NCBI GenBank assembly: GCA_965371515.1
Contig: CBDUYR010000009.1
Coordinates: forward strand, 4,602-68,601
Length of the DNA: 64,000 nt
Direction: 5' to 3'
Source of the DNA: an uncultured bacterium
GTDB lineage: Bacteria > Krumholzibacteriota > Krumholzibacteriia > Krumholzibacteriales > Krumholzibacteriaceae
The notes beneath the pieces are model-generated. The model searched no databases. It saw only the letters and a list, made by a program, of their open reading frames with translations, and was not told the DNA's origin. How positions within the stretch are numbered: position 1 is the first letter of the stretch; each line of letters starts with the position of its first letter. A program made the translations under genes and the position numbers. Shown piece after piece: positions 4,350 to 48,305 of the stretch.

Positions 4350-4447
4350 TCCATATCCCCCTGTCAGGTATATCCGGCACATTAAATTAAATCCATGCAA
4401 GAATCATGAGAAAAATACCTGATTCCAAAGCGGATCTCGATATACAG

Positions 4448-12412: not shown

Positions 12413-12420
12413 GGGGCGGC

Positions 12421-12459
12421 TCCCGTCAAAGGCTCCCGTCAAAGGCTCCCGTCAGAGGC
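12421..12459. repeat. 13-bp tandem repeat x3 (tcccgtcaaaggc), between the dusB start and the stop of the upstream membrane gene
   Basis: Direct reading. The third copy has one substitution (cagaggc). Confidence 0.7.
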
Positions 12460-17010: not shown

Positions 17011-17141
17011 TGGAGACCTCCCCTTGTGTTGTTCAGTGCATCATCCCGGCCAGCGGGATATCCGTGCGCTCCCCCATGGGGCGCCACCCGCGGTACCCCT
17101 GAATATGGGGCCACCGGGAATCGGAATCAAACGCTTATTAA

Positions 17142-23444: not shown

Positions 23445-24013
23445 CCTACACCCCTGACTTTACGTATGGCCCTGTCGATGGAGAGACATTCCTGCCTGTA
23501 CCTCTCGAGAACGGCCACAGTAAATCTCTCCTCGTCCACGCCGATCTCTCCCAGGCCGACCGCCGGAACCGGCGCGCCCTGCGGGTCTATGTTAACGCCG
23601 CAGTGGAAGACGGTCGAGACGGGTGTGACTGTCGCGATGGCAACGGTAAGCTTCTTCCCCGCGATGTAGAGATCGTCCCCGTCTCTGTTAAGAACGAGAG
23701 TCGGCACGAGTTCTCTGATCAATTCACCGACGATGCTGACAAACAGGCGCAGCCTGTAGTTGGTCTCCCTGAGCGTGCATTCGAAATGCTCCCCGATAAA
23801 ATGAAGCATCTCCTCGGCGATGATGCTGCTGTGCTGGTCGGCGTCTTCGAGGTCTACCAGACGCGAGCCCGTCACGGCGCACGCTCCCCTGAACGCCACG
23901 ACGCCGTCCGACGTGATGCCGGCCTTCCCCCTCACGAAATGGCTGCGCAGCTGATCGCCGGTGTAGTCGATACGCTCCTCGAGGATCTTCGTCTCAAGCA
24001 TCAGATCATCCAT
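23441..24013 (-). CDS. Conserved hypothetical protein embedded in the queD-queC-queE operon
   Basis: 190 aa with no motif I can name. Has 4-bp overlaps with the neighbouring que genes. Confidence 0.45.
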   Translation of the reverse strand: MDDLMLETKILEERIDYTGDQLRSHFVRGKAGITSDGVVAFRGACAVTGSRLVDLEDADQHSSIIAEEMLHFIGEHFECTLRETNYRLRLFVSIVGELIRELVPTLVLNRDGDDLYIAGKKLTVAIATVTPVSTVFHCGVNIDPQGAPVPAVGLGEIGVDEERFTVAVLERYRQECLSIDRAIRKVRGVG

Positions 24014-24055
24014 CTCCTGTTATCGTTTTCCCTTGAGTCACAGGTCGTCCCTGCA

Positions 24056-24763
24056 TCATCGGTCGTCTTCAAAGAAGATCGAAGCCCGGGCGTGCGTTCC
24101 GCCGACTGCCCTCTTGAGCCGGACACACGACTCGCATCTCCCGCACATCCTTTCGCCGCCGCGGTAGCACGACCAGATGTGATCCCAGGGCAGGTCGAGT
24201 TCTATCCCCCGTTCGACTACCTCTTTCTTCTGCATTGCCAGGGTCGGGCTTTCCACCCTTACCGGCGCACCTGTGCTTATGGCAAGCGCCCTGTTGACGA
24301 CATCGACGAACTCCTCGCTGTTGTCGGGAAAGGCGCCGGCCTCCTCGCTGTTGAATCCGGTTATGATCACGGCTGCACCGCGGGCGGCGGCGAAGGCCGC
24401 TGCGACGTTGACGAAGATCCCGTTGCGGTTTTCGACCCAGACAGCCCTCGAAACGCGGGCCTGGTCGTCGGGATGGCCCTCGGCGGGATAGTCCGGAGTA
24501 TCGTCTCCGCCCGGGGTCATCGTCGACGAAGAGATATGCCCGAGCCACTGCAGTTCGACCTTCTCGAACGCCGTTCCGTAATGATCAGCGAAGGCCTTCG
24601 AGGACTTCTCCTCCTTCTCTGCGGGTACCTGTCCATAATCAAAGAAGATCGAGAGACCCACGTCGTACTCACCGGCCGCGATAGCCAGCGAAACGGCGGA
24701 ATCGAGCCCGCCCGACAGGAGAACAACCGCCGATTCCCTGCCCTTCGCAACATCATTCTCCAT
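24056..24763 (-). CDS. queC: 7-cyano-7-deazaguanine synthase QueC
   Basis: PP-loop VVLLSGGLDS. C-terminal zinc cluster WSCY ... CGRCESCVRLKRA. ATG at 24763. Confidence 0.85.
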   Translation of the reverse strand: MENDVAKGRESAVVLLSGGLDSAVSLAIAAGEYDVGLSIFFDYGQVPAEKEEKSSKAFADHYGTAFEKVELQWLGHISSSTMTPGGDDTPDYPAEGHPDDQARVSRAVWVENRNGIFVNVAAAFAAARGAAVIITGFNSEEAGAFPDNSEEFVDVVNRALAISTGAPVRVESPTLAMQKKEVVERGIELDLPWDHIWSCYRGGERMCGRCESCVRLKRAVGGTHARASIFFEDDR

Positions 24764-25133
24764 AGCGCACCATATCCTTCGATGTTTCCCAGAGTTCGAC
24801 TTCCCTGAGCAGACCTCCCTCGAACACCAGTTTTTCGCGGCACATTCTGAATATCTCGGCAGCGAGGTTCTCCGAGGTCGGGCTGATCGTGTCGAACGGA
24901 GGGATATGGTTGAGATGCAGATGATCGAATCTCGGCAGGACGACCTTCTCGAGCCCCGTTTTGAGCTCGAGATAGTCGATGGTAAGTCCCCTGCCATCGA
25001 CCGCCTCGAATTCGTAGTAAACCCGCAGGACCCAGTTGTGTCCGTGCACTCTCGAGCACATACCGTCGTACTCATCGAGGCAGTGAGACGACGAAAACTC
25101 GATCTCTGTCGAGACAGTCCATTTTCCAGTCAT
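24753..25133 (-). CDS. queD: 6-carboxy-5,6,7,8-tetrahydropterin synthase QueD
   Basis: PTPS fold with the SSHCL Cys and HGHNW zinc/His motifs. 126 aa. Confidence 0.8.
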   Translation of the reverse strand: MTGKWTVSTEIEFSSSHCLDEYDGMCSRVHGHNWVLRVYYEFEAVDGRGLTIDYLELKTGLEKVVLPRFDHLHLNHIPPFDTISPTSENLAAEIFRMCREKLVFEGGLLREVELWETSKDMVRYGE

Positions 25134-25378: not shown

Positions 25379-28300
25379 GTGTTTCTGACACAGGAAAAAG
25401 CGCTCAAGAGGATCGTCCAGGAACGCCAGAAAGGCGACAGGAAAAGAGCCTTGAGAAACGCGATGAGCGCGCTGAAGAAATGGCCTGATGATTTCGATAT
25501 CGCAACGGAGGCGATACAGCTCTGTCTCGATATCTCCGATTTCAAGGAAGCCGTTTCCCTGATGAAGAACACGATCAGACACCACCCCAGATCGAAGCAA
25601 CAACTCTTATCGATAGCCCGCGAGGCGCTTCACTTATCGTTCGATCCCTTTCTCGCAAGTTTCGTCATCGAATTCCTCATCAGAAGCGGGGATTTTGATT
25701 CAGCCCGCCAGGCGATACGGGCGGGGTCCACTTCCTATATCGAGGGGATGATCAAGCGCTCCGAGACGAGATCGAAGGAATTCGAGGAAAGCGACAAGAA
25801 GAAATCGTCCACCTATGCTGAAAACGAGATCCTCCTGGGTCTTTTATTCCTTGAGGCAAGACGCTGGTCCGAGGCGGTCGAACCGCTCGGCAGGGCGATG
25901 AAGAGTCTGCCCGACGAGGCGCATGGCATCGGTGCAGCCCTGCTCGAGGTCGAACGCGAATGCCCGACGAACTCGCACATCCAGTACTATCTCGGAATCG
26001 CATCGATCCTGTTGTCTCATCTGGATAAAGCAGAGTCGAGATTCTTCCGCGCGCTCGAGCTGGAGGACCCGCCGGCGACTGAGATTCTGAAGATACTCGA
26101 GGCGAAAGAGGCAAGATCGAAAAACTGGCTGCTGATGAAGGGCGAGGCCCTCATCTCGGCGGGGATGGGGCCGGAAGGCACGGCAGGCATAAGGGACTAT
26201 CTCGAAGCGAAGGACGGCGGGTGGGACCGGAAGGATATTCCGGGAGACATCAACCAGCTATTCCCCGAACAGGTCGACAGGCAGAAATTCGCGTTCGCAA
26301 GACTCGAAAAACTCCCTCCTGACAGACTCGACGACATCGAAGTAACGTTCCTCTACAGCGAGATCGCTTCGGCGATGCAAAGAGCCAAAGATGCTGTGGA
26401 GGCGCTGAAGACATATTTTGGAAATCATCGTGAGTCGGCTGCGAGGCTCGCGGACTGGGCTGCCGGGAACGAGGCGGTTTCGAACAGCGCTCCGGGACAG
26501 GAGTTGCTCGTCCAGCTGAATCTGCATCTCGGGAAGGGCGAGACGGCGGCGGCCGCATCCGGCAACGCGGCCGAGATGGATCCGTCACGCATACCCTCCA
26601 TCCTCGAGATGATCCAGATCGCTCTCGACGCCGGATTCGAGGAGAAGGCGCCGCTCCTGTCGATCCAGGCGGAGCTCTACGCCCGGGGGGGCAACGAAGA
26701 GAAGGCGTCCGAACTTATCAGGGAGATGGAATCGCAGGAAACACTCGAGAAGGAAGAGCTCCTCAGACTCTCCGGCGAGGTGATGCGGCACTGCGGGGTG
26801 AGTCTCGACGGGGTGATCTCTACGATCGAGCTCGGGATAAGAAATTCGCGCGTCGCGGAGGCCCTCACCTACTCCCTCGAATTCTATCGGGACAATCCGG
26901 ACTCGCACGTCCACTTCGCCGAGCAGATCGCCGGGATCGCCGAAAAGGACCCCGATGCATGGCCGGCACTGGCCGAGCTGTGCGAGCTGTTCGCCGCCGA
27001 AGAGGAACTCGACCAATCGATGAGATTCCTCAGGGCAAAATCGCACATAAAAAGCGGGCAGATCGAGAGGGCCGTCTTCGAGTTCGACCAGCTGATGATG
27101 TTCGACGATTCACTGAGATCCTCCGTGACCGATCTCTACGAAGAAGCCATCGGCGGCAATCCCGAAAACACGACCCTGCATCTCGCCCTATACCAGATAT
27201 ACTTCGAGGACGAAAGATACGCATCCGCCTCCCGACATCTAGGCCGGGCGTTGGAGACCGACCCGGCACAGATACGCGACATCGTGCCGCGGTTCGAGAA
27301 ACTCGTCGAACGCGATCACGCCAACAGTGCAATCTGGGACGAGATACTCGGCTCGGCAATGAAGATCAGGCACTTCGACTTTGCCCGCGAGCTGCTGAAC
27401 AAGGCCGTTCAGGCCCTTCCCAAGAGCGAGTCTGCCGCCCTTCACATATTCGGCGCGAGGATCTCGACGACCGAGGGGAACATCGAAGACGCGTTGAGAT
27501 GCCTGGCAATGACCCTGACCTCCACCCACGCCGATTTGGGCTCGGTAAAAGCGGAGCTCGGAGAGATCATCGCGAAGGAACCTTCGAGCGCCGAAGCAAG
27601 ATATCTTCTTGGAGAGACGATGTTGAGGCTCGGGTCCGAGGACGAGGCCACCGCCGAGCTTGAAAGATGCATCTCCCTTTCCCCCGCATATCTCGACAAG
27701 GTGGGACAAAGGCTCGAGAAGCTTCTTCCCGTCAGCATAAAGCCCTGGCTCATATCGAGGATACTGGGAGAGGTGCACTGGGCCGGATCGAGACGCGACG
27801 AGGCGATGAGATATCTCGAGTCGGCACAGAAGGGCCCGCAGGAATCGCTTCCGCAACTGGGAGAGACTCTGAAGAGGCTCACCGCCGGTTCGCCCGATGA
27901 CGCGGAGCTCGTGTTTATCTACGCAAGGAATCTCGTCCGAACAGGCGGAAACGACGAGTCGGTCGGAATACTCGAAAGATTCGTCTCCGCGGACGGAACG
28001 ATCTCCTCCGGAGCCGTCGCCGTACTGAGAGAAATAATCGAAAACGAACCGGGGCACCTGGGAGCCAACAGGCTCCTCGCCTCGATACTTTCCGAAACCG
28101 ACGACAACGGAAGGGCCGTCGACGCCCTCCTCCGTATAACCGGCATCGAGAATACCGCTCCGGAGACCCTCATCGAGATGATCGAGCCCTTCCTCGAAAA
28201 GTACGGTGAAGAGCCGAGGCTGCTTGTGCCGCTCGGAGGGCTGAGGAGCAGATCAGGCGGCCTCAGCAAGGGCCTCACAGACTTAGAGAAGACACTGGCC

Positions 28301-29245
28301 CTGGACAGCTCCTTCGCTCAAGCGATACTTGACGAGACGACAAACATCGAGTGGTCGAAAAAGTACATCATCCGCAGCCGGCTCCTCGAGGCCGACTGCC
28401 GCATCGTCACGGGCGACCGGGAAACGGCGTTCTCGATACTCGGGGAGATCGACTCCGGATCGCGTTCCGTACGGACGAAGGTGATAGAACGGATCCGCAG
28501 TCTGATCAACGCCGGTCAGAAGAAGGAATACTACGAGTTCGCATCTCAGCTCCTTGCCGGCGGCGGTGACACGAAGGGAGCCGAATCGATCCTGAGGGAA
28601 GGCATCGATTCCCTGGGCGGCGAGGACGCGGGCGATCTCCTTATCACGATGGGCGGAATCTTCGAGGCCGCCGGAATGGAAGAAAAGGCGGCCGGGTGTT
28701 TCCGTGAGGTCCTAGACGGTTCCGTTGACAAGCAGAAGATACTCGTCAGGATCGAGAAGATATGGTCGTCGTGGAAGGAAAGGGAGATCCGTTCCGGACT
28801 CGAAAGGATCACAGCAGGCGAGACCGACGCGGCGGAGACGGAAAAACTCGTCCGAACAGCCATCGAGACGGGAGATCTCGACTCGGCCGGAAAGATGATC
28901 GATGCCGGCGGCATCGAACCCCTGAGAAGAAAAGCGCTTCTGTCGAGACTGCACATGGCCGCGGACAGGCCTCTGAGCGCACTCGCAGTGGCAGGTTCAG
29001 CCCCGAGAGAAGACGGCGACGAAGAATCAATACTGGAACTCCTATATGTAGAAGGTGCTGCGAGCGAGATGCTGGGCGACTACGGAAGGGCCGCCGCAGC
29101 ATTCTCGCGTATCCTCGGGATCCGCAGTGAATATCTCGATGCCGGCAGCAGGGCGGAGAGCGCCTACGCCAGGTACATCGCTTCGCAATGTGAAGAAAAC
29201 GCCGGCCTGCTGATCGCGACCGGCGATCTCGATCTGGAAAAGTGA
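25379..29245 (+). CDS. Giant (1288 aa) all-helical TPR-like repeat protein
   Basis: Continuous TPR/Sel1-like helical repeats with no enzymatic motif. GTG start with an AGGCGGA RBS. Confidence 0.6.
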   Translation: MFLTQEKALKRIVQERQKGDRKRALRNAMSALKKWPDDFDIATEAIQLCLDISDFKEAVSLMKNTIRHHPRSKQQLLSIAREALHLSFDPFLASFVIEFLIRSGDFDSARQAIRAGSTSYIEGMIKRSETRSKEFEESDKKKSSTYAENEILLGLLFLEARRWSEAVEPLGRAMKSLPDEAHGIGAALLEVERECPTNSHIQYYLGIASILLSHLDKAESRFFRALELEDPPATEILKILEAKEARSKNWLLMKGEALISAGMGPEGTAGIRDYLEAKDGGWDRKDIPGDINQLFPEQVDRQKFAFARLEKLPPDRLDDIEVTFLYSEIASAMQRAKDAVEALKTYFGNHRESAARLADWAAGNEAVSNSAPGQELLVQLNLHLGKGETAAAASGNAAEMDPSRIPSILEMIQIALDAGFEEKAPLLSIQAELYARGGNEEKASELIREMESQETLEKEELLRLSGEVMRHCGVSLDGVISTIELGIRNSRVAEALTYSLEFYRDNPDSHVHFAEQIAGIAEKDPDAWPALAELCELFAAEEELDQSMRFLRAKSHIKSGQIERAVFEFDQLMMFDDSLRSSVTDLYEEAIGGNPENTTLHLALYQIYFEDERYASASRHLGRALETDPAQIRDIVPRFEKLVERDHANSAIWDEILGSAMKIRHFDFARELLNKAVQALPKSESAALHIFGARISTTEGNIEDALRCLAMTLTSTHADLGSVKAELGEIIAKEPSSAEARYLLGETMLRLGSEDEATAELERCISLSPAYLDKVGQRLEKLLPVSIKPWLISRILGEVHWAGSRRDEAMRYLESAQKGPQESLPQLGETLKRLTAGSPDDAELVFIYARNLVRTGGNDESVGILERFVSADGTISSGAVAVLREIIENEPGHLGANRLLASILSETDDNGRAVDALLRITGIENTAPETLIEMIEPFLEKYGEEPRLLVPLGGLRSRSGGLSKGLTDLEKTLALDSSFAQAILDETTNIEWSKKYIIRSRLLEADCRIVTGDRETAFSILGEIDSGSRSVRTKVIERIRSLINAGQKKEYYEFASQLLAGGGDTKGAESILREGIDSLGGEDAGDLLITMGGIFEAAGMEEKAAGCFREVLDGSVDKQKILVRIEKIWSSWKEREIRSGLERITAGETDAAETEKLVRTAIETGDLDSAGKMIDAGGIEPLRRKALLSRLHMAADRPLSALAVAGSAPREDGDEESILELLYVEGAASEMLGDYGRAAAAFSRILGIRSEYLDAGSRAESAYARYIASQCEENAGLLIATGDLDLEK

Positions 29246-30657
29246 AAGGAAAGGCCATGAAGATCTGTCCATTAATCACGCAGGTATCGATCCTCGAGGA
29301 ACCCCGCGACGTCATCCTCCTCGGAGAAACTCATGACACAGAGCTCCACAACGGGGACATCGGCGAAAATGACGGGGATAAAGACGAAGGGGATGAGGGC
29401 AGCGACATCTTCATGAATCCCGACGCAGAGGATTCATCTGACGAAGATTCTGGAGATGATTCCGACGAGGAAAGCGAAGGGGACGACGGCGAGAACGAGA
29501 CAGGATCCACCGGGGAATCGCCCGACGAGGAGAAGTGCGATGACGCATCCTCCACGCCTGTCAGATTCGTCGCGAGGTCGACACGCGGCGAGGTTCACTG
29601 CCTCGGCAGTCAGTGCCGCTTCCATGACGACAAAAGCGGAGAGTGCGGTATCGAGATACTGCTCAGGAACGGTTTGACCCGAGACAACGGACACGCTGAA
29701 GAGAGCCGCGAGACAGACGGAAAACTCGACGAAAGGCTCGAATCGATCCGCGGCGACCTGGAAAAATCGTGGGACTTCCAGCAGAGAAGCACCGGCGATA
29801 TCCTCGGCTTATTCAAGGAACTCGAGGAAAAGACGACCGCATCGGCGGACACGCTGAAAGAGTCGTTCGATAAGAGTTTCGACGAAATAAAAGAGCTGAT
29901 CTCGTCGGTCAACGAAGACAACAAGCTTATCGTCGATTCGCTGTCCGACACCCTCGCCGAAAGGAGCGAGGATCTCGACGACAGGCTCGGCGAGAGCAGC
30001 AAGAGTATCGAGCAATTCCGTGGCGAGGTCTCGAACTGGAAGGAATCCCTCGACGAGAGCATCAGCAAGATCGAGAGCGACCTGAAAGAGAACAGGCGAC
30101 TCGCCCAGGAGGTCTCAGAGAACAACAGCGATATCATGCAGGTCGTCGAGAACCAGAAGATAGCGCTCGAGGAAGAGGAAGAGAGACGCCGGGTGGACGA
30201 GGCGAAAAAGCTCAACAACGCAGGCGTCATGTCGTATCACAGCGGCCATTACGAAAAAGCCCTCGACCTTTTTAAAAAAGCGATAGAGATAGACGACAAA
30301 TTCACCGAGGGTTACAACAACCTGGGACTGACATACACCGAGATGAACGAGGAAGACAATGCCACCGAGGCGTTCAAGAAGGCTATCGAGCTCAATCCCG
30401 ATCTCGCCGCCACTTACAATAACCTCGGCTACGTATTCTACAGGCTGGGATCGTATACTGAAGCGATCGAGATGTATAACGAGGCGATCGGCCGCAGCGG
30501 CGACAACAGCTCGGCCTACACCAATCTTGGAAACGCCTGCTACAAGCTCGACCGTGTCGAGGACGCGATCGAGGCCTGGCAGAAGGCGCTCGACATCGAC
30601 CCGTCGAACGAAAAGGCGAAGCGCAATCTCAAGCGTTTCCACGCCGAATCGAAATAA
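29242..30657 (+). CDS. Acidic coiled-coil protein with a split Cys4 element and C-terminal TPR repeats
   Basis: ATGA overlap with the upstream gene. A CPLI Cys and a HCLGSQC ... GEC Cys group flank an Asp/Glu-rich segment. Central coiled coil. 4-5 TPRs at the C-terminus. Confidence 0.6.
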   Translation: MKGKAMKICPLITQVSILEEPRDVILLGETHDTELHNGDIGENDGDKDEGDEGSDIFMNPDAEDSSDEDSGDDSDEESEGDDGENETGSTGESPDEEKCDDASSTPVRFVARSTRGEVHCLGSQCRFHDDKSGECGIEILLRNGLTRDNGHAEESRETDGKLDERLESIRGDLEKSWDFQQRSTGDILGLFKELEEKTTASADTLKESFDKSFDEIKELISSVNEDNKLIVDSLSDTLAERSEDLDDRLGESSKSIEQFRGEVSNWKESLDESISKIESDLKENRRLAQEVSENNSDIMQVVENQKIALEEEEERRRVDEAKKLNNAGVMSYHSGHYEKALDLFKKAIEIDDKFTEGYNNLGLTYTEMNEEDNATEAFKKAIELNPDLAATYNNLGYVFYRLGSYTEAIEMYNEAIGRSGDNSSAYTNLGNACYKLDRVEDAIEAWQKALDIDPSNEKAKRNLKRFHAESK

Positions 30658-30674
30658 ACAGACGATTAATCACA

Positions 30675-30703
30675 GGGACCGGGTCATCCCGGTCCCTTTT
30701 TTT
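30675..30703 (+). terminator. Rho-independent terminator after the TPR gene pair
   Basis: Hairpin gggaccggg-tcat-cccggtccc followed by TTTTTTT. The T-run overlaps the cspA stop on the other strand. Confidence 0.55.
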
Positions 30704-30911
30704 AATCGAGCGTGCGGACGTTCCTGGCCTCGAGTCCCCGTTCGCCGTCGCTCAGATCGAACTCCACTAATTCACCCTCACTGAGCGTCCTGAACCCCTC
30801 CCCCTCGATGTCCGAGTAATGGACGTAGATCTCGTTGCCGCCCGTCTCCCGGCGGATGAAACCGTAGCCCCTGCTCTCATTGAACCACTTGACCTTGCCG
30901 CGTTCAGGCAA
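30702..30911 (-). CDS. cspA: Cold-shock protein (CspA family)
   Basis: CSD with RNP1-like KWFNESRGYGFI and RNP2-like VHYS. Confidence 0.9.
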   Translation of the reverse strand: MPERGKVKWFNESRGYGFIRRETGGNEIYVHYSDIEGEGFRTLSEGELVEFDLSDGERGLEARNVRTLD

Positions 30912-31103
30912 CGCTGGCCTCCCCCTCTTCCGACCGTTTCTGCATCATTGCTGGCGAATGGCGATAATAGCAGTTCTCCGGCCATCAATCAACCTCCGAT
31001 TTCCTTATATCCCAAAGATTTAAGCGATACCGCCCCCGCCCCTCTTTGGCACTTTTCTTGCGTGTTTGATTGCGGAAGATTACTCGGAAAGGATAAAAGT
31101 GTC

Positions 31104-32444
31104 ATGTCGAGGCTTCAGATACCGTACACCAGCGTACTGGTGGACCCGACCGATTACGATCCCGATCATTTTGAATCGGTCCTGAGAAAGTACCTCGGTG
31201 ACAGGCGCGGAGACCCAGTCGTCATCGAGGTGTTCAACGATCACGTTCAGTATTTGACGTTCATAAGGGATGGTCAGATCTACTGGTGCTGCACGAGCGC
31301 TCCGGACGACTTCAGCGGACTGTCCGTGCGGGAGTATTTCTCTTCGCTGCGCAGGACCCAGTTCCCGAAGGTGATTGTATACTCGGTCGACCTTCTGCTG
31401 TTCCATTCCCTCATCGTCTACCTCCAGACCACGCCCGAGCTGAAGGTCAGCTCGACTCTCGTCGACTTTGACGAGCTCCTCGACAGAATCGAATCCGAGA
31501 ACCGAAGCGCCCTCGTCACCGCCCTGCAGCCGGGTAACCTCGTGATGCTCAGATACAAGGAAGGCGTTCCTGTAGCTTGTTATCACGGTCTCCACACAGG
31601 CGCGTCGGGTGAGACGAGCCATCGCGAGAGCTTCCTCGTGAAGGTATACACGATGGCCGCGAGAGTCCCGTTTGAAATCAGGATATTCACCGAACTGGTC
31701 GTCACGCATTCCGAAGACGCGAGGCAGATACCCGATGATTTCGAGGGTCCTGTCCCGTCGTTCTTCCTCAGCCAGCCCCCGAAGCTGATCGTCAGATTGA
31801 AAAACAGGCCGCTGAAGACATACAACTTCACCGGCAAGCAGATCACGATCGGCAGGCTGCCCGAGAACGACATAGTGATAGACAACCTCAGCGTCTCGAG
31901 AAAGCATGCCGTCATCCATTCAGTCAGGTCCGGTTACGTCCTCCGCGACCTGGGCAGCAAAAACGGAACGCTTCTCAACGGCGAGAAAGTCGAGCACGGC
32001 GAACTCAAGGCCGGCGACTCGATAACGATCGGCAAGTACGAGATAATCTTTCAGATCAGCACCGGCGAGGAAAACACCACCGACACGCTCGACCAGACCA
32101 TCATCATCCCCCGCTTTCATAGTGAATCCGGCCATAAGGAGAAGGATCCGCTGAATAAACAGGCAGCCGCCCCCCCGAGACTGTACCGCCGTTCCGAGCA
32201 GGAGGAATACGCCATCGAGGGCGACAGATTCGTAATCGGCAGGGGCAGGGGATCGGATATCAAGCTGAAGGGCCTCTTCGCCCCCCGCGTAAAGGTAAGC
32301 ATCCACAGGAACGGACCCGACTGGATCATCCAGGCGGATGGGAAGAATAGCGTGACAGTCAACGGCGAGAAGATGGAGGAGAAGGTCCTGCAGGAAGAGG
32401 ATCTGATCGCCATCGGCTCGGAGGAATTCGTCTTCAAGCACTGA
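31104..32444 (+). CDS. Protein with an unknown N-terminal domain and two FHA domains
   Basis: FHA 1: ITIGRLPENDIVIDNLSVSRKHAVI ... GSKNGTLLNGEKV. FHA 2: FVIGRGRGSDIKL ... NSVTVNGEKM. The N-terminal 260 aa is unassigned (possibly DUF4388/roadblock-like). Confidence 0.7.
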   Translation: MSRLQIPYTSVLVDPTDYDPDHFESVLRKYLGDRRGDPVVIEVFNDHVQYLTFIRDGQIYWCCTSAPDDFSGLSVREYFSSLRRTQFPKVIVYSVDLLLFHSLIVYLQTTPELKVSSTLVDFDELLDRIESENRSALVTALQPGNLVMLRYKEGVPVACYHGLHTGASGETSHRESFLVKVYTMAARVPFEIRIFTELVVTHSEDARQIPDDFEGPVPSFFLSQPPKLIVRLKNRPLKTYNFTGKQITIGRLPENDIVIDNLSVSRKHAVIHSVRSGYVLRDLGSKNGTLLNGEKVEHGELKAGDSITIGKYEIIFQISTGEENTTDTLDQTIIIPRFHSESGHKEKDPLNKQAAAPPRLYRRSEQEEYAIEGDRFVIGRGRGSDIKLKGLFAPRVKVSIHRNGPDWIIQADGKNSVTVNGEKMEEKVLQEEDLIAIGSEEFVFKH

Positions 32445-32448
32445 TACA

Positions 32449-33177
32449 ATGAAATACTTAGTATTTTCAGATATTCATGGCAACGCGCAGGCTCTCGAGA
32501 AGGTCATCGAGGAGATCGCCGAGATCAGGCCCGATTTCGTCGTCTCACTGGGCGACGTCGTCGGCTACGGAGCGAACCCTTCGGACTGCGTCGACCTCGT
32601 CGACGAGCACTGCGACATCCGGGTCTGCGGCAATCACGATTTCGTGGCCGCCGGCCTGGCAGAGAGCGAGGACTTCAACGTCACCGCGAGGATATCGATC
32701 GAATGGACGAAGAGCTCGCTTTCCGCACGGCAGAAGGAACTTCTCGCTGCCTACGATACTGTCAGGCGGCACGGGGAGTGCCTGTTCGCGCACTCCTCCC
32801 CCATCTCTCCCCTCGACTGGGAATACATCTACACTACAGGACAGGCGGAGAGGATCTTCAGGGAGACCGACGCCAGATTCATCTTCATAGGACATACGCA
32901 CGTGCCGGGGATCATCAGCCACGACCCGGTATCAGGATACACGGTGGAGAACAGCTCGAGGATCGAGGCCGAACCAGGCCGTCGATACCTGATAAATGCG
33001 GGAAGCATCGGTCAGCCGAGGGACGGTGTCAGCGCAGCGAGCTTCGCCGTCATCGACGTGCAGCGAAGCAGGATCAGCATGCGGAGGATCCCTTACGACG
33101 TGACGGAAGCCCAGGAGAGGATCAGGGCGGAAGGACTGCCCGAATCACTCGCCTCGAGGCTCACCCTTGCGAGATGA
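32449..33177 (+). CDS. PPP-family metallophosphoesterase (putative Ser/Thr protein phosphatase)
   Basis: Motifs DIHGN, GDVVGYG, GNHD, GHTH. Confidence 0.7.
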   Translation: MKYLVFSDIHGNAQALEKVIEEIAEIRPDFVVSLGDVVGYGANPSDCVDLVDEHCDIRVCGNHDFVAAGLAESEDFNVTARISIEWTKSSLSARQKELLAAYDTVRRHGECLFAHSSPISPLDWEYIYTTGQAERIFRETDARFIFIGHTHVPGIISHDPVSGYTVENSSRIEAEPGRRYLINAGSIGQPRDGVSAASFAVIDVQRSRISMRRIPYDVTEAQERIRAEGLPESLASRLTLAR

Positions 33178-34922
33178 GAGAGATGGAAGAAAGAAACTAC
33201 CAGATACTGAGCACCCTCGCCACCGGCGGAACCGCCGTACTGTACAAGGCGATCCAGAAATCTCTCGACCGCGAGGTGGTCATAAAGAGGCTCCATTCCC
33301 ATCTCACGTCCGACACGAATTTCACGAGACGTTTCGAGGTGGAGGCCAAAGCCGCGGCAAGCCTCGACCACGAAAATATCGTCCGTATCATCGATTCGGG
33401 CAACTCCGAGGGGAACTACTTCATAGTGATGGAATACATCGACGGTTTCTCGCTCAGCGAGATCCTCGAGAAGCACGGCCTGATCGACGACGAGCTCACC
33501 CTGCTGATAGCGCGTGAGATCTGCATCGGTCTCGATCACGCCCACCAGCACGGGATTATCCACAGGGACATCAAGCCGGCCAACATCATGATCACATCGA
33601 CCGGCCAGGTAAAGATCACCGATTTCGGGCTTGTAAAACTGATCGGCAACCAGCTCCAGCATACGGTAGCCGACACACTGCTCGGCACGCCCCTCTACAT
33701 GTCGCCCGAACAGGCAATCGGCGACGGCATCGACGGACGCAGTGATATCTTCTCCCTCGGCACGATCTGTTACGAAATGGTCACTGGAAAACAGCCCTTC
33801 ACAGGGAACACATATGCAGCCGTCATACAGAGGATAATCGAAGGTCACATCCCACATCCCTGCCGCGTCAACGAAAAGGTATCCCCCGAAATCAGCCGCA
33901 TCATCATGAAGGCTCTCAGCAGGGAACCATCGAAGAGGTACGGGACCGCTCTCGAGATGGCCAGAACGATAGAGACATGCATCGGCCAGGAGAAAGTCTG
34001 GTCGCTGAGGAACAGGGTCCGCAGACTCGTCTGCGGGCACGACCCGCTCGAGACCGTCGCCGAGTCCACCCCCAGGCGCCGACGCAGGGGAAGCGCGAAA
34101 AAATGGCTCGCCGGCATGGCGGCCGCCGCTGTGGTGATCGCGTCCGGCTACACCGCTGTCGAGCGCCCCGACATCATCCGGGGACTGAGGACGAAGGTAG
34201 AAGGCGTGCTGTCGGGTTTGAGTACGGAAAAGCCCGAAGGGCTGCTCGATGCTTCGAACACTCCCGGAGGATTGATGGAAAGCATGTTCACTGCGGCCGC
34301 AGACACCGGCGCGGTGGAGACCGATTCCCTGGCGGCAGTGACGGAGACATTCGATCCCGTGTCACCAGCCGGACCGCCCGAAGGGATCGCGCCCGAACCT
34401 GACACTCTCGCGGCCGTCAACGAGCCCGCCCGCGAAGAGATTTCATCCGACGGGCAGGACGAGAAACCGGTCGTCGAAGAGGAACCGGCGCCCGCCGTCG
34501 GCCTGATCGACATCTACGTCGAGCCCGAGGCCGAGATACACATCGACGGGCGCTGGCGCGCATCGACCGACAGGTTCGGTCCTGTGGAACTCTCCGCAGG
34601 GCCTCACGATATTACGCTCAAGCAGCGCGATTACAGGGAATACACCGAGAGGATCGTGATCAGGAAGGGGGAGCTGTCGCGGAGGAGGATCGAACTGCAG
34701 CGCGTTACAGGCAGCCTTGATTTTACAACGGTCGCCGGAGCGAGCGTCTTCGTCAACGGAAAATTCCACGGGATTACTCCGCTTAAGAACCCGATACAGC
34801 TGACTTCGGGTAAATATCTCGTCGAGCTGAAGAAGCACGGTTATCTCACGTGGACCGGCGAGGTAGACATCCCGTCGAGTGAGAAACTCTCCCTGAAGAT
34901 CAACATGATCCAGCGCCAGTAA
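33174..34922 (+). CDS. Ser/Thr protein kinase with TM segment and C-terminal PEGA-like domains
   Basis: Hanks motifs (GGTAVLYKA ... VVIKRL, HRDIKPANIM, DFGL, SPE). TM segment (LAGMAAAAVVIASGY). PEGA-like beta domains. ATGA overlap with the phosphatase. Confidence 0.8.
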   Translation: MREMEERNYQILSTLATGGTAVLYKAIQKSLDREVVIKRLHSHLTSDTNFTRRFEVEAKAAASLDHENIVRIIDSGNSEGNYFIVMEYIDGFSLSEILEKHGLIDDELTLLIAREICIGLDHAHQHGIIHRDIKPANIMITSTGQVKITDFGLVKLIGNQLQHTVADTLLGTPLYMSPEQAIGDGIDGRSDIFSLGTICYEMVTGKQPFTGNTYAAVIQRIIEGHIPHPCRVNEKVSPEISRIIMKALSREPSKRYGTALEMARTIETCIGQEKVWSLRNRVRRLVCGHDPLETVAESTPRRRRRGSAKKWLAGMAAAAVVIASGYTAVERPDIIRGLRTKVEGVLSGLSTEKPEGLLDASNTPGGLMESMFTAAADTGAVETDSLAAVTETFDPVSPAGPPEGIAPEPDTLAAVNEPAREEISSDGQDEKPVVEEEPAPAVGLIDIYVEPEAEIHIDGRWRASTDRFGPVELSAGPHDITLKQRDYREYTERIVIRKGELSRRRIELQRVTGSLDFTTVAGASVFVNGKFHGITPLKNPIQLTSGKYLVELKKHGYLTWTGEVDIPSSEKLSLKINMIQRQ

Positions 34923-38182: not shown

Positions 38183-41100
38183 ATGAAAAACGAGCCAGGA
38201 TTCACCTCACGCTATGCGATCAAGAAGGCACTCGGTGCCTATTCCCCATGGCAGGGGTTCGGTGTCACCGATTCCCTCAGTGGTAAGGACTACCTCCTCT
38301 TCTCGCTGGTCATCCCAGTCGAGACATCGATATCAACAGACGATCTGCTGATGAGGGATTACCTCTTCGCCGACGCGGCCGGCGACAACATCCGCGCCCT
38401 CTCGATCCAGGACAACGGCGGCGGCGTGTTTTTCCTTCTTCCCTGGCAGGAACTCGTACCAATCACGAAGATGCTTCCCTCCCTCAAACCCGAAGAAAGT
38501 CTGGAGCTGACTCGCTCCCTGACATCCACCTTTCTCGACTGTATATCGACGGGGCGGTTTTTTCACAACCTCTCGATCGAATCCGTCGTAATGCAGGGAA
38601 CCTCGGCCGGCATCCTCCCGACCGCCTATCTCGTCCCGGAGGCTGTGCTCGACAGGCTCGGTGCTTCGCGCGGGGACGGCAGCGGCGAGAACCTCTTCGA
38701 CGACCTGAACGCTTTCGGCGAACTGCTTGCCCTCTTGTGCAGGTATCTTCCCGCGGAACACTCCACCGCATGCGCGGAAACGGCCGAGAAGCTGCGGGCA
38801 ATCGGGCCCAGGACCGGTGACAATCTCTTTCCCCTCATCGAGAAGCTCGGTGAACTGGCAGGGAAAAAATCCGGAACTCCCGTCGTACTGGCCGGAAGGA
38901 AACCGGTGCTGAAGAACCATTCAGCGGTGATGAACCTCGTGAGACAGGCAGCGTTCAGATCTCGCGAAGATAGAAAGCAGATGGTGATCGTCTCGGGCCG
39001 GGCGGGCGAGGGCAAGACATCCCTGCTCGAGGAGATGGCGAGAAAACTGAGCGGGGAATGGGGATTCGAGGGCGATGGTATAGCCGGGGACCAGAGCGTC
39101 TTCAGTGATTTCCGGGACCGTGAGGAAAGTCCCGAGGCCGAGTTCACGATCCATGACGACCATCACCAGGATCCGGTCCTGAGCGGCCTCATCGTCGACC
39201 GTCTCTCCCACGACCTGGAGAAGAGCAGGCTCGCCGTCATCGGCCTGAGCGACGATTCGCCGGCCTGGTTCTCCGACGCTGTCCGTTCGGAGGGCCGCGA
39301 GAGAGGCTTCCATATTACCGATATCGAGATATCCGACCCGAGTTTCGCCCGGAAAAGTGGAGCGGTACTGAAACTTCTCCCGAAAGAACAGCGGACCGCC
39401 GTGAAGAAGACATTCAGCTGCAACGACAGCTTTGCCGTCGTGGAGCTCAAGACAAGGCTGGCCGCTGAAAACGCGACCGCGGACAGAACGGTCGGCAACG
39501 TCATAGATTTTCTCGACGACGAGGAAAGGTCGGTCCTTTCATTCATCGCCGTTTTCAGGTTCGAGGTTCCTCTCTCCATCCTCAAGGAGATCTTCTCCAC
39601 CGAGGAGGGCCGCTTCTACAGGATCCTGCACCGCCTGGTCACGCTGGACATCATCCGTAAGAAGGCGGGCAGATCGTGTTTCGCCAACGACGGCTTCTGC
39701 ACGCTCTTCAGCATCAGCGGCAAGAGTATCTCTTCGATGATAGAGGAATCGATCGATCCCGAACGGCGAGTGCAGCTTCACAGGAACATCGCCCAGATTC
39801 TCAAGGAGGCGCAGGGAGCGCCCGCCGCGTATATTTTCTACCACCTCGTACGGTCGGGCGACATGCAGGAAGCCGCGTTCAAGGGGCTGAGGGTCTTCAA
39901 GCTGCTCCTCACCCGGAAGCGCCTTAACGCGATAAATTCATTTAACGACGGATACATCACCCTCGGTCTCGACCGTCACCTCCCGATGGAGATGAGGCTG
40001 AACCTGCTCCTCGAACTGGGAAATTACTATGCGAACATCGGCAAGATCGAGAAGGCCGAGGAGTTCTTCAGGAATTGCCGTGAGGAAACGAGCACGAGCG
40101 ACAGGTGGCAGAGCCACAGGGAACTAGCAGTCGAGGCGATCAGGAAAGAATGTGAGATCCTCGAGAAGCGCGGCGAGTTCATAGTCGCCGAGGAGCTGCT
40201 CAAAAAAGCTCTTGAGACACATGGCGAGCATATAATGGCCCAGGAGAGGGCGAAGCTCTACAACGATATCGCATGGGTATACTACCGCCTCGGCAAGTTC
40301 GACAAGTCGTGGGAAAACTGCCTCCTCGTCCACAAGCTGCTCGACAAGAAGCAGCACCCGATGGAACTGGCCCAGTCCTACAACCTCATGGGCGCGATCA
40401 ACTGGAACAGGAGCAAGTACGACGAGGCCCTACTCTGCCACAAGAAATGTCACGCGCTGCGCGAGGACTGCAACGATGAACTCGGGGTCGCGGCCAGCTT
40501 CAACAACCTCGGCCTCGTCTACCGCTCGATGGGAAGGATCAAGGAGGCACTCGAGAGTTTCACGAAGAGCATGCGCATCAAGCAACGCAACAACAACCGC
40601 CCCGGTCTCGCGGCGGTCCATCTCAACATAGCCCTCGCCTGTCTCGACACAGAGGAGCTCGAGAAGGCCGAGTCGAACTGCATGACGGCTGTCAAACTGG
40701 CTGAGGATCTCGGCAATCAGCAGCTGCTCGCGGAGATCTACGGGACCCTCGGCGAGATCCACTTCAGGAAGGGCGATCATACCGAGACGCGGAACCATTA
40801 TTTCAGGGCGCTTCACATATGCCAGAAAACACGCTCGCTGCGTGAGAAGGCCGTCGTGCTGAGAAGGCTCGGAGAGCTCGGCCTCGTCGAGGGAAAGATC
40901 GACGAGACGAAGGACCTCCTGGGAGAAGCAAGAGAGCTCAACAAGCAGATCGGATCGCGCCTCGAGACGGCGCTGCTCGACCTGCTAGATGGAAGAGTGC
41001 AGCTCGCCGAGGGTAAGCGAGAGCACGGGCGGCGCATCCTCGAGGAAACGAGTTTCGAGCTGTCGCTGCTCGGCAGGAAGGGAACGGCCGCCTCCATCGC

Positions 41101-42817
41101 GTCGGAGCTCGGTGAGCTATACCTCGAGGAGGGGAACGAACCTCTCGCACGCGAGTACCTTCTCAGGGCAATCTCCCTCTTCGGCGAATCGGAGAAACTC
41201 CCCACCAAGGTTTCCCATCTCCAGAAACATCTCGAGCAGAGAACTGCCCTCGACCTCGAAAAGATCCACTCCGATTCGGCGAGGTTCAGAGTCCTCTGCC
41301 GCCTCATCTCCCTGATACGGACTATCCACGATCCCGACAGGCTGCACAAAACGATTACAGAAATGGCGATGAAAGTGACGAGCATGGAGCGGGCAGCGCT
41401 CATCCTCCAGAGCGATGGCCAGGACACTTACAGGATCCTCGCGTCGATCGGCGACTTCGACTCGGAGTCGATACTGACCGACCACAACATCATAGCGATA
41501 CTGAACATCGCCAGGCAGCTCGGATACCCGCTCGATATTTCGAGGACGAGGATCCCGTCCGGCAAGGTCGAGGAGAATTTCCTCTCTGATCATCCGGGGA
41601 TTATCTGTACGCCCCTCTGGATCCACGAGGAAGTGACGGGTTATCTCTACCTCGACGCAAGCCGTGAAGGGGCCGGGACGACCGACGAGGACCACACATT
41701 CCTCGTCGCGTTCAGCCAGCAGATCGCCCTGGGCCTGGAAAGGATGCTCCTTTCCGACAGGCTCAGGCAGAAGGAAAAGCCGTCCGGAGAGAAGGTATCG
41801 GTGATCGCCAGTCCGGGCGACAGGGTCACATTCCAGGACATCATCGGGAAGTCGGCGGCGATAAGGAAGATCTACGACCTCATAGACGGCATCAAGGACA
41901 TGGACACGACGGTCCTGCTCACCGGCGCGAACGGGGCGGGAAAGGACCTCATAGCGAAAACGATCCACTACACCGGCCCGAGGAAAGACAAGCCGTTCCA
42001 CACACTGAACTGCCCGGCGCTCCCCGACCAGCTGATCGAGAGCGAGCTGTTCGGTCACGAGAAGGGCTCCTTCACCGGCGCGTACAAGCAGAAAATCGGC
42101 CATTTCGAGTCGGCCAGCGACGGCACGATCTTCCTCAACGAGATCGGTGACCTTCCGCTGAAACTCCAGCCGAAACTCCTGCGGGTACTCGAAGACATGA
42201 GGTTCTTTCGCGTCGGCGGAACGAAGGAGATCAAAACGAGCGCGAGGATTATCTGCGCAACGAACAAAGATCTGATGAAACTGGTCAAGGAAGGCACGTT
42301 CCGTGAGGACCTCTATTACAGGATCAACATATTCCCGATCAGGGTACCGGGGCTGGCCGAGCGCAGGGAGGACATCAAACTACTCTGCAACCATTTCTTG
42401 ACCATGTACTGCCGCCTGTACAATACTGCAACAAAGCGTATCTCGCCCGAGGCGATGGTCTACATGACCGAGTACGACTGGCCGGGCAACGTCAGGGAGC
42501 TGGAAAACACGATCAACCGGCTCATGATCATCTCGAAGAAGGACACGATCCTTCCCGAGGACCTGCCGGTCAATATCGTCAAGCACAGGGAAAGCGTCGA
42601 GACCAGGTCGCTCAGCACTCTCGAGGAGATGATCGAATCGATCCTCGAAACGGTCGAGTTCTCCGACAGCGACCCGATACTGCCCAGGGTAAAGCGGACG
42701 CTGATAAGCAAGGTAGTGGAAAAAACAGGAGACAAGACGAGGGCCGCGCAGATACTCGGTATCTCGAAGCCCACTCTCTACAGCCACCTCAGGAGCCATG
42801 AGCGGAAAAACCGCTAG
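38183..42817 (+). CDS. 1544-aa sigma54-dependent transcriptional activator fused to N-terminal pseudokinase-like, STAND P-loop NTPase, TPR and GAF modules
   Basis: The C-terminal part is a sigma54 AAA+ activator: LLTGANGAGKDLIAKTIHY, ESELFGHEKGSFTGA (GAFTGA-type), RVPGLAERREDI, plus a Fis-type HTH (AAQILGISKPTLYSHL). A GAF-like region lies around aa 1000-1150. TPR repeats span about aa 560-950. The P-loop is VIVSGRAGEGKTSLLEEMARKL. The N-terminal 170 aa is kinase-like but lacks the catalytic Lys/Asp. Confidence 0.8.
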   Translation: MKNEPGFTSRYAIKKALGAYSPWQGFGVTDSLSGKDYLLFSLVIPVETSISTDDLLMRDYLFADAAGDNIRALSIQDNGGGVFFLLPWQELVPITKMLPSLKPEESLELTRSLTSTFLDCISTGRFFHNLSIESVVMQGTSAGILPTAYLVPEAVLDRLGASRGDGSGENLFDDLNAFGELLALLCRYLPAEHSTACAETAEKLRAIGPRTGDNLFPLIEKLGELAGKKSGTPVVLAGRKPVLKNHSAVMNLVRQAAFRSREDRKQMVIVSGRAGEGKTSLLEEMARKLSGEWGFEGDGIAGDQSVFSDFRDREESPEAEFTIHDDHHQDPVLSGLIVDRLSHDLEKSRLAVIGLSDDSPAWFSDAVRSEGRERGFHITDIEISDPSFARKSGAVLKLLPKEQRTAVKKTFSCNDSFAVVELKTRLAAENATADRTVGNVIDFLDDEERSVLSFIAVFRFEVPLSILKEIFSTEEGRFYRILHRLVTLDIIRKKAGRSCFANDGFCTLFSISGKSISSMIEESIDPERRVQLHRNIAQILKEAQGAPAAYIFYHLVRSGDMQEAAFKGLRVFKLLLTRKRLNAINSFNDGYITLGLDRHLPMEMRLNLLLELGNYYANIGKIEKAEEFFRNCREETSTSDRWQSHRELAVEAIRKECEILEKRGEFIVAEELLKKALETHGEHIMAQERAKLYNDIAWVYYRLGKFDKSWENCLLVHKLLDKKQHPMELAQSYNLMGAINWNRSKYDEALLCHKKCHALREDCNDELGVAASFNNLGLVYRSMGRIKEALESFTKSMRIKQRNNNRPGLAAVHLNIALACLDTEELEKAESNCMTAVKLAEDLGNQQLLAEIYGTLGEIHFRKGDHTETRNHYFRALHICQKTRSLREKAVVLRRLGELGLVEGKIDETKDLLGEARELNKQIGSRLETALLDLLDGRVQLAEGKREHGRRILEETSFELSLLGRKGTAASIASELGELYLEEGNEPLAREYLLRAISLFGESEKLPTKVSHLQKHLEQRTALDLEKIHSDSARFRVLCRLISLIRTIHDPDRLHKTITEMAMKVTSMERAALILQSDGQDTYRILASIGDFDSESILTDHNIIAILNIARQLGYPLDISRTRIPSGKVEENFLSDHPGIICTPLWIHEEVTGYLYLDASREGAGTTDEDHTFLVAFSQQIALGLERMLLSDRLRQKEKPSGEKVSVIASPGDRVTFQDIIGKSAAIRKIYDLIDGIKDMDTTVLLTGANGAGKDLIAKTIHYTGPRKDKPFHTLNCPALPDQLIESELFGHEKGSFTGAYKQKIGHFESASDGTIFLNEIGDLPLKLQPKLLRVLEDMRFFRVGGTKEIKTSARIICATNKDLMKLVKEGTFREDLYYRINIFPIRVPGLAERREDIKLLCNHFLTMYCRLYNTATKRISPEAMVYMTEYDWPGNVRELENTINRLMIISKKDTILPEDLPVNIVKHRESVETRSLSTLEEMIESILETVEFSDSDPILPRVKRTLISKVVEKTGDKTRAAQILGISKPTLYSHLRSHERKNR

Positions 42818-48113: not shown

Positions 48114-48305
48114 CGTGCTCTCCCTCTGTTGAAAAATGATGTAACGGATTCGCGGTTCCAGAAAACCGCCCCGCCACGATAGCAGAAACACCTCGATGCG
48201 GCAAGTGAGCGTGAGGCCCGCGCCGTCAGAAAGGATTTGATATATATACGGGTCAGGGGATATTCTGTTCCCGGAAGTCATTGTTTACGGTCCGGTCAGG
48301 TGAAT

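Follow-up and report, generated by a model that had tools for sequence, protein, structure and literature searches.

We analysed a 64,000-nucleotide stretch of DNA, referred to below as the window, from an uncultured bacterium of the phylum Krumholzibacteriota (family Krumholzibacteriaceae; GenBank assembly GCA_965371515.1, contig CBDUYR010000009.1, forward-strand positions 4,602 to 68,601). Three co-directional genes in it encode an FHA adaptor, a metallophosphoesterase (MPE) and a Hanks-type serine/threonine kinase (STK). On balance we consider it probable that these genes constitute a single phospho-threonine (pThr) reader/writer/eraser unit belonging to the core genome of Krumholzibacteriota, in which an enzyme resembling the protein of PDB entry 3RQZ is found in place of a PP2C phosphatase.

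Gene organisation of the cassette

The gene for the FHA adaptor, the pThr reader, occupies positions 31104-32444 of the forward strand and encodes 446 amino acids (aa). It is followed on the same strand by the MPE gene, the candidate eraser (32449-33177; 242 aa), and by the kinase gene, the writer (33174-34922; 582 aa). The stop codon of the FHA gene and the ATG of the MPE gene are separated by a 4-nt spacer (TACA), and an ATGA is common to the MPE stop and the kinase start. A first-pass annotation of this DNA had given the coordinates, the 4-bp gap and the ATGA overlap exactly to the base.

The mechanical open reading frame (ORF) of the FHA gene, 30819-32444, starts further upstream than the gene itself; we rejected this longer form, since its additional 5′ part runs into a minus-strand cold-shock gene (30702-30911). 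Comparison of the 18 orthologues with the start in view showed that the position aligned to 31104 is ATG in 16 and GTG in one; in the remaining one (L011; loci from other genomes are numbered with the prefix L) the alignment is broken at that position. About 35 neighbouring ORFs were scanned in the window and no secretion genes were found among them, in agreement with the first-pass statement that there are none nearby. Rfam and tRNA scans of the window revealed nothing relevant to the cassette, with a single tRNA-Val located at 55244-55319.

Conservation of the cassette in Krumholzibacteriota

A scan with one genome per species found 19 loci encoding a full-length relative of the FHA adaptor, with 50-87% identity. 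Most of these loci are labelled Candidatus Krumholzibacteriota or Krumholzibacteria, and the rest come from unclassified metagenome-assembled genomes. The gene order TPR1-TPR2-(csp)-FHA-MPE-STK, in which TPR1 and TPR2 are two upstream genes for TPR proteins and csp is the cold-shock gene, was present in every one of the 19 loci with enough sequence, down to about 50% identity; the synteny in relatives on which the first-pass proposal had been made to depend was therefore found, the order recurring in 19 related loci. Of 18 related loci, 15 have the 4-nt overlap between the MPE and kinase genes; the gap between the FHA and MPE genes in related loci ranges from 2 to 13 nt. The order FHA-MPE-STK(PEGA)-GT9-RsgA-EIIA-Zn-ribbon is retained even in a deeper relative, L113, the N-terminal domain of which is 33% identical. 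The three genes are predicted to be translationally coupled, with the coupling conserved across the phylum.

The cassette lies in a much longer conserved region. From 20.7 to 42.8 kb the related genomes are collinear throughout, housekeeping genes included: the stretch contains genes for threonine aldolase, HU, QueE, DUF366, QueC, GT9, RsgA, an EIIA-like protein and a σ54 activator. Shared gene order inside the phylum is for this reason weak evidence of function, and collinearity throughout the related loci is what would be seen if the three genes were independent neighbours, held together by inheritance because gene order in the phylum is very stable. We regard this explanation as improbable, as the genes are not merely adjacent but overlap by 4 nt or lie 2-13 nt apart, and as the adaptor/kinase and MPE/kinase pairs recur in unrelated backgrounds in other phyla, as described below.

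The kinase

The writer is a Hanks-type kinase according to Pfam (Pkinase, PF00069, 185.3 bits), with the catalytic motifs VVIK, HRDIKPAN, DFG and SPE all intact. The kinase domain (residues 9-258; 33198-33947, + strand) is followed by a single hydrophobic transmembrane segment (residues 311-329; 34104-34160, +), an acidic and Pro-rich linker, and two extracytoplasmic PEGA domains (approximately 34500-34703 and 34725-34910, +), which were matched by Pfam PF08308 in two stretches at 60.5 bits against a cutoff of 20.8. The first-pass description of a membrane Ser/Thr kinase with a PEGA-like part thus holds. The PEGA part is kept in the orthologues and in a distant STK-PEGA partner (L109). The PASTA kinase model NF033483 (Stk1/PknB) was not reached, with 325 bits against 450, and covered the kinase domain only.

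The kinase domain also gave strong PADLOC matches to PD-T4-6 and mad6, together with a below-threshold NCBIfam match to MAD6, which could be read as a sign that the kinase belongs to a PD-T4-6-type or MADS-type system of anti-phage defence. However, these matches span only the generic kinase domain, and on this ground the reading was dropped as highly improbable. Neither the FHA nor the TPR proteins had a specific PADLOC match, those of TPR2 and the MPE being marginal (E≈3e-4 to 1e-3), and the locus is core and collinear across the phylum, with housekeeping flanks and no mobile-element genes seen.

A second Hanks kinase, of 504 aa with C-terminal TPRs, is encoded 15 kb downstream (49865-51379, +). 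Its kinase domain is 33-40% identical to those of the cassette kinases.

FHA domains and linker motif of the adaptor

Pfam FHA (PF00498) matched the adaptor in two stretches at 98.6 bits, placing it in the family. The best stretch, FHA1 (residues 247-310; 31842-32033, +), has the canonical pThr-binding residues GR, SRxH and NGT, which are kept in nearly all of 17 aligned Krumholzibacteriota sequences; the Gly of NGT is substituted in L017 and L019. The second, FHA2 (residues ~377-440; 32232-32423, +), was located by the other Pfam stretch and by residue alignment and is degenerate, with APRVKV where SRxH is expected and NS/NGE where NGT is expected. The first-pass term "tandem FHA" is correct as to the number of stretches and needs a qualifier as to function, because FHA2 lacks the pThr-binding Ser and His.

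Between FHA1 and FHA2 lies the motif LDQTIIIP (32088-32111, +), in which Thr332 has an Ile at +3, making it a candidate phospho-acceptor and FHA ligand. Thr with Ile at +3 is a typical pattern of FHA ligands. The motif, in the form (L/M)DQT(V/I/M)(I/V)(I/V)P, was found at this place in all 17 aligned Krumholzibacteriota sequences, and the majority of the distant relatives have Q/E/T-T at the corresponding position. Thr332 of the invariant DQ-T-IIIP would be the likeliest phospho-acceptor of the adaptor.

The N-terminal domain of the adaptor

The region preceding FHA1 had been described as an unassigned domain of 260 aa; it is indeed unassigned, and its length is nearer to 232 aa (residues 1-232). 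No match of its own was found in Pfam, NCBIfam or the PDB sequences when it was searched as a single sequence, nor in the PDB by profile. A word-indexed homology search with this domain returned 6-8 close matches only, even with a profile, whereas an exhaustive HMMER search with the N-domain profile among 1.84 billion representative proteins found 58 proteins at E≤1e-3. C-terminal FHA domains, one or two in number, were present in 40 of the 46 family members examined. One member is labelled Acidobacteriota and the others are metagenomic proteins. A further protein, P0036 (978 aa), in which ~75-aa near-identical repeats gave ten short matches to the profile, was set aside as apparently spurious and is probably a translated repeat array.

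The AlphaFold2 model of the domain, built on a 23-sequence alignment, has a pLDDT of 91.5 and a pTM of 0.88, and its secondary structure consists of two copies of (β)-α-β-β-β-α-β. Module 1 (residues ~10-108; 31131-31427, +) is predicted as β-α-β-β-β-β-α-β-α, and module 2 (residues ~113-195; 31440-31688, +), which repeats it, as β-α-β-β-β-α-β, with a pLDDT of 89.4 when modelled alone. An internal duplication is supported because the two halves align profile to profile (hhalign probability 80%, E=1.4e-5).

The sole Pfam family that recurs in the N-domain family is DUF4388 (PATAN, PF14332), which matched 7 of 23 members below threshold, the best of them with E=1.1e-5. Some of these matches lie in one half and some in the other, and both halves match the same part of the DUF4388 model. 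The family consensus scored 25.1 bits against a gathering score of 25 (E=1.9e-5), and the window protein itself had no match. For the half-1 consensus DUF4388 was the only Pfam match (E=0.04), and for the half-2 consensus it was the top one (E=0.012). Because DUF4388 recurs in the members, in the consensus and in the half-consensuses, we call it divergent, tandem and PATAN-like, a homology that is probable but not settled. The DUF4388-like guess of the first-pass annotation therefore pointed in the right direction, on evidence that proves borderline.

Foldseek searches against the PDB were rejected as fold assignments. The whole domain matched sliding clamps and GyrB with TM ≤0.19, and a single module matched GHKL fragments with TMq 0.35-0.40 and a root-mean-square deviation of 6-8 Å.

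PATAN domains are found in many architectures; in the cyanobacterium Synechocystis, those of PatA-type response regulators bind PilB1, the ATPase of the type IV pilus (bioRxiv 10.1101/2021.06.11.447907). This binding suggests, by analogy, a protein-interaction or localisation role for the N-terminal domain. The adaptor has two such copies one after the other, joined to FHA, whereas the PatA-type regulators have a receiver domain.

Partnerships of the adaptor in other lineages

Genes with the same combination of N-terminal domain and FHA occur beside kinase genes outside the phylum. Soil and sediment loci were located with a sub-alignment of five N-domain sequences. In this metagenomic clade, a kinase-domain match was found about 1.7 kb downstream of the adaptor gene in all 12 loci with enough downstream sequence. 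Five soil/sediment loci had mapped ORFs, and in each the adaptor gene overlaps an ORF of ~805 aa by 4 nt; in L079 this ORF was assigned by Pfam to TPRs with a C-terminal kinase, and a 282-aa TPR protein comes next.

Other arrangements were found in more scattered loci. In L109 the adaptor gene is located beside a convergent STK-PEGA gene, with a kinase domain 35% identical and the PEGA part aligned, and beside a gene for another FHA protein. L110 has a divergent TPR-STK gene and then the order adaptor, PP2C, FHA, and L115 has CHASE2-STK, PP2C and an adaptor with N-terminal domain and two FHA domains. The deltaproteobacterial locus L021 likewise has CHASE2-STK, PP2C and an FHA-FHA protein, the latter without the N-terminal domain. 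In the other lineages, where an eraser gene adjoins the reader, it is a PP2C, and in L110 and L115 the PP2C gene adjoins the reader gene as the MPE gene does in the window.

Two further features of these loci were recorded. Upstream of the adaptor gene in L079 (7050-7903) are a gene for a DksA/TraR-type zinc-finger protein (142 aa) and an unassigned ORF of 142 aa, and ORFs of similar size are located upstream in L084, L087, L089 and L097. In L110 a 152-aa Metallophos_2 gene (10053-10511) lies 3 kb downstream; it has the short YfcE/MJ0936 size and not that of the 242-aa 3RQZ type.

The metallophosphoesterase

The product of the middle gene belongs to the calcineurin-like superfamily: it passed the Pfam cutoffs for Metallophos_2 (PF12850, 69.9 bits against 27) and Metallophos (PF00149, 61.2 bits against 21.5), and all metal-binding motifs are kept. 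The sequence carries SDIHGN (residues 7-12), GDVVGYG, GNHD (61-64), AHSSP, GHTHVP and GSIGQPRDG, and the metal ligands D8, H10, D36, N62, H63, H115, H149 and H151 do not vary among 25 orthologues.

The first-pass annotation had called this enzyme a PPP-type phosphoesterase, not of the PP2C type. The DIHGN, GDVVGYG and GNHD motifs cited for it are all there, and as a Metallophos_2 enzyme it is not a PP2C, but the assignment to the PPP family fails. Of the PPP signature, motif 1 (GDxHG) corresponds to SDIHGN and motif 3 (GNHE/D) to GNHD, but motif 2, GDxVDRG with the phosphate-binding Arg, is replaced by GDVVGYG, which is invariant in the orthologues. The PPP models PrpA and PrpB were missed about 10-fold (NF008516, 32.7 against 326 bits; NF007425, 21.8 against 332 bits), and the λ phosphatase λ-PP (1G5B) matches residues 4-78 only. 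Neither were the YfcE-type models (TIGR00040, 37.5 against 56.25 bits; PRK09453, 44 against 117 bits) and the ApaH model (NF001204, 20.3 against 176 bits) reached.

The sole close solved relative of the MPE is 3RQZ, a metallophosphoesterase of Sphaerobacter thermophilus from structural genomics, the deposit of which gives no function. The two match over the full length with E=7e-46, or 2.8e-58 with a profile, at about 39% identity, and the MPE carries every motif of 3RQZ, including GQPRDG and the C-terminal GLPESL helix. Judged by its sequence, the MPE is not a true PPP enzyme and is placed in an uncharacterised branch of Metallophos_2 together with 3RQZ. A literature search for SapH, 3RQZ and the Metallophos_2 protein MJ0936 returned unrelated acronyms only.

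As the homology search with the MPE listed only orthologues of at least 55% identity, distant contexts were taken from a tblastn search of 72,556 plasmids, in which 108 records matched. The three best homologues are all from Alphaproteobacteria: Rhodobacter sp. CZR27 (39%), Shinella sp. PSBB067 (36%) and Pseudoroseomonas cervicalis (33%). Each of them directly precedes a Hanks kinase gene, 1-70 nt away, and the two partner kinases that are annotated are named [quoted passage not shown]. In a rough neighbour-joining tree, these three kinase-adjacent enzymes are sister to a clade of Krumholzibacteriota and 3RQZ, with which they have in common a WxY insertion, GQPRDG and a GLPxSLxxRL tail. Five plasmid homologues of 32% identity or less were found in unrelated contexts, namely sugar biosynthesis, an ars operon, zinc-paralogue clusters and ADP-ribosylglycohydrolase. 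The alphaproteobacterial units of MPE then kinase are located at 4745-6211 in L101, 4746-6155 in L102 and approximately 4808-5560 in L105, on large replicons of cultured strains that are filed as plasmids.

These results bear on what the enzyme may hydrolyse. It could hydrolyse nucleotides or phosphodiesters, as enzymes of the YfcE, SapH or ApaH type do, and either be co-transcribed by accident or degrade a small-molecule signal such as Ap4A or a cyclic nucleotide (cNMP), in which case the cassette would have no dedicated phosphatase. Metallophos_2 is the Pfam family of YfcE and MJ0936, the best NCBIfam matches, all sub-threshold, are to the phosphodiesterase PRK09453 and the YfcE family, and JGI names the homologues "predicted phosphodiesterase" or "ApaH/...". 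The varied contexts of the remoter homologues, the nucleotide-binding Usp domain of the alphaproteobacterial partner kinases and the soil-clade cassettes, which have no phosphatase gene at all, are in keeping with such an activity. Against it, the YfcE and ApaH models were missed by the scores given above, a PP2C occupies the position of the MPE next to the reader in two homologous cassettes, the 4-nt MPE/kinase overlap is maintained across the phylum, and adjacency to a kinase is confined to the closest MPE homologues. We therefore rate the hydrolase explanation as rather unlikely. A protein-phosphatase role is the reading of the MPE that appears best supported, because PP2C and MPE substitute for one another in homologous cassettes and because the closest plasmid homologues are adjacent to kinases. 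No PP2C was found in 353 kb of Krumholzibacteriota sequence, which is mostly the same region from 20 genomes and therefore says nothing about whole genomes.

Upstream TPR genes

Two TPR genes precede the cassette on the same strand. TPR1 (25379-29245, +), the first gene of the conserved five-gene block, encodes a 1288-aa TPR-repeat protein recognised by Pfam TPR families, and it was found upstream of the cassette in 17 related loci. TPR2 (29242-30657, +; 471 aa) overlaps it by 4 nt and has an acidic N-terminus, a coiled-coil-like middle and C-terminal TPRs. Neither protein has a signal or transmembrane segment, and both are therefore taken to be cytoplasmic.

The csp gene (30702-30911, −) has a TTG start and encodes 69 aa, its translation containing GKVKWFNESRGYGF. 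It is convergent to TPR2 and lies between TPR2 and the cassette without being part of the module; between TPR2 and csp, and apparently shared by them, there is a terminator-like GC-rich hairpin followed by a T-run (30674-30697; 10-bp stem with 8 GC pairs, T7 tail). About 11 of the related genomes have the gene, whereas it is missing from L007, L009-L012, L014 and L018. In L009, L010, L014 and L018, which lack csp, the gap between TPR2 and the FHA gene is only 25 nt, and the five genes therefore form an operon there. It looks as though csp is a lineage-specific insertion that split an ancestral five-gene operon. The first-pass suggestion that the TPR proteins are clients of the cassette stays in the realm of speculation. 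A specific homology of TPR1 and TPR2 to the TPR-kinase fusions of other lineages was considered and dropped, the similarity being that of generic TPRs.

The 7-deazaguanine (queuosine precursor) cluster is located directly upstream of TPR1 and divergent from it (22707-25133, −), with a radical-SAM QueE-like gene, DUF366, QueC and a conserved ORF of 126 aa.

Proposed mechanism and significance

The mechanism that we propose builds on the gene structure, the domains, the intact catalytic and pThr-binding residues, the conserved coupling and the partnerships that recur elsewhere; the input signal, the phospho-site, the partner of the N-terminal domain and the substrate of the MPE are those that we infer. 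The writer would be a single-pass membrane kinase that receives an envelope-side cue through its two PEGA domains. It may autophosphorylate and then phosphorylate the adaptor, most likely at T332. The canonical FHA1, the binding residues of which are intact, could bind pThr either on the kinase or on T332 of the adaptor, giving a switch of self- or trans-recognition like that of GarA. The tandem PATAN-like domain would then provide the output or interaction surface, by protein-protein contact as in PATAN domains, and the two co-conserved cytoplasmic TPR proteins are possible partners of it. The MPE would reset the system by dephosphorylating pThr, in the slot that comparative genomics shows to be held by PP2C in homologous cassettes.

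Several observations weigh against a dedicated reader/writer/eraser unit of this kind, in addition to the collinearity of the whole region. Among characterised proteins, those closest to the MPE in sequence are phosphodiesterases and nucleotide hydrolases (YfcE, SapH, ApaH-like), and YfcE, SapH, ApaH-like enzymes and the λ Ser/Thr phosphatase match it weakly and about equally. The 3RQZ-like branch is uncharacterised, and the protein-phosphatase activity of the MPE is a prediction. The clusters of the soil clade manage without a phosphatase gene. The link of reader and kinase outside the phylum is frequent, not universal, as no kinase is within view in L111, L112 and L117, which carry distant relatives of the adaptor. 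In the genome of the window the convergent csp and the terminator part the TPR genes from the cassette, and the kinase-fused TPR regions of other lineages have no specific homology to TPR1 or TPR2. The PATAN link, finally, is borderline, with a consensus just at the cutoff and no match for the query itself.

The reader/writer/eraser cassette of the first-pass annotation accordingly finds partial support. As a statement of family "PPP-type" is incorrect, and the eraser activity is inferred; the three-gene unit, its intact motifs and the coupling of the genes stand. More tentatively, and as a possibility that we rate below the existence of the unit itself, 3RQZ-like Metallophos_2 enzymes may represent a third, so far unrecognised class of cognate Ser/Thr protein phosphatases of bacterial Hanks kinases besides PP2C/PPM and true PPP enzymes, present in Krumholzibacteriota and some Alphaproteobacteria, and the proteins combining tandem PATAN-like and FHA domains may make up a new adaptor family that acts phospho-dependently and links membrane kinases to a target in localisation or assembly.

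If the MPE is the eraser, there would be kinase-coupled protein phosphatases among the many proteins that carry the name "metallophosphoesterase family protein" or "predicted phosphodiesterase", the structural-genomics orphan 3RQZ would gain a function, and phosphatase inventories built on PP2C and PPP models would be undercounts. The tandem PATAN-like/FHA family is tied to pThr signalling in several uncultured lineages and is predicted to fold confidently, with no Pfam model or solved structure of its own. The idea is testable, as the proteins are small and soluble-looking and cultured strains of Rhodobacter, Shinella and Pseudoroseomonas carry the MPE-kinase pair.

Other features of the window

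Downstream of the cassette, and kept there in relatives, is the gene for a 1544-aa protein (38183-42817, +) with a STAND-type NTPase (AAA_16/nSTAND), TPR, GAF, a σ54-interaction AAA+ domain and HTH_8; its first ~250 residues have no Pfam assignment. A tricorn-like protease of 1178 aa (44745-48281, −) has PD40 β-propeller repeats, Tricorn C1, PDZ and an S41 peptidase domain. Five ORFs of 271-631 aa are without a Pfam family at E≤1e-4: 15394-17289 (+), 43017-43832 (+), 48856-49809 (+), 3462-4400 (−) and 11840-12922 (+).

Comparison with known systems

The actinobacterial operon fhaA-fhaB-pstP-rodA-pbpA-pknA-pknB encodes FhaA, with a globular N-terminal domain and a C-terminal FHA domain, the PP2C phosphatase PstP, and PknB, a membrane STK with extracytoplasmic PASTA repeats. 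The cassette resembles it in combining, in one operon, an FHA adaptor that has an N-terminal globular domain, a phosphatase and a single-pass kinase bearing repeats. It differs in having Metallophos_2 instead of PP2C and PEGA instead of PASTA, and in the lack of cell-wall synthesis genes. The N-terminal domain of the adaptor has no Pfam match at all and therefore none to the FhaA N-domain family. PASTA kinases are co-transcribed with a cognate PP2C, and for bacterial Hanks kinases more generally the co-transcribed cognate phosphatases are given as PP2C (PMC6213207).

With Fha1-PpkA-PppA of the Pseudomonas aeruginosa type VI secretion system (T6SS) the cassette shares the logic of an FHA reader, a membrane Hanks-type writer and an eraser, as the first-pass annotation had pointed out; beyond the logic the comparison does not extend. 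PppA is a PP2C (PMC6213207), the TagH/Fha1 model TIGR03354 was not reached by the adaptor (56.5 against 120.25 bits), and no T6SS families were found among the scanned ORFs. Judged by the TagH and PASTA models and by its eraser, which is no PP2C, the cassette belongs to neither the FhaA/PstP/PknB nor the Fha1/PpkA/PppA system.

In GarA and OdhI an N-terminal motif with a phospho-acceptor Thr binds the FHA domain of the same protein. The adaptor is similar in that a canonical FHA domain lies near a strictly conserved Thr motif, which could be an intra- or intermolecular pThr ligand. It is different in that the motif is C-terminal to FHA1 and that the large N-terminal domain and the degenerate FHA2 are additional; the OdhI model NF041660 matched the FHA region only and below its threshold (75.8 against 200 bits).

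Calcineurin-like phosphatases, not PP2C, do occur in Hanks-kinase signalling. Anabaena prpA-pknE is a linked pair of a PPP-like phosphatase and a kinase. In the archaeon Sulfolobus, a network of ArnA (FHA), ArnB, the kinases ArnC and ArnD, and PP2A controls the archaellum (PMC7472852, PMC12852372). The cassette is like these two systems in the class of its phosphatase candidate taken broadly, but they have true PPP enzymes, whereas the MPE lacks GDxVDRG and falls short of the PrpA and PrpB models. The partner phosphatases of bacterial Hanks kinases that have been reviewed are nearly all PP2C/PPM, with a few true PPPs (PMC6213207), and our literature search found no paper on a cassette of metallophosphoesterase, Hanks kinase and FHA protein, nor one on signalling in Krumholzibacteriota. 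The logic of the cassette is ordinary, but the class of its phosphatase candidate is non-standard, and its reader has a previously undescribed PATAN-like double domain.

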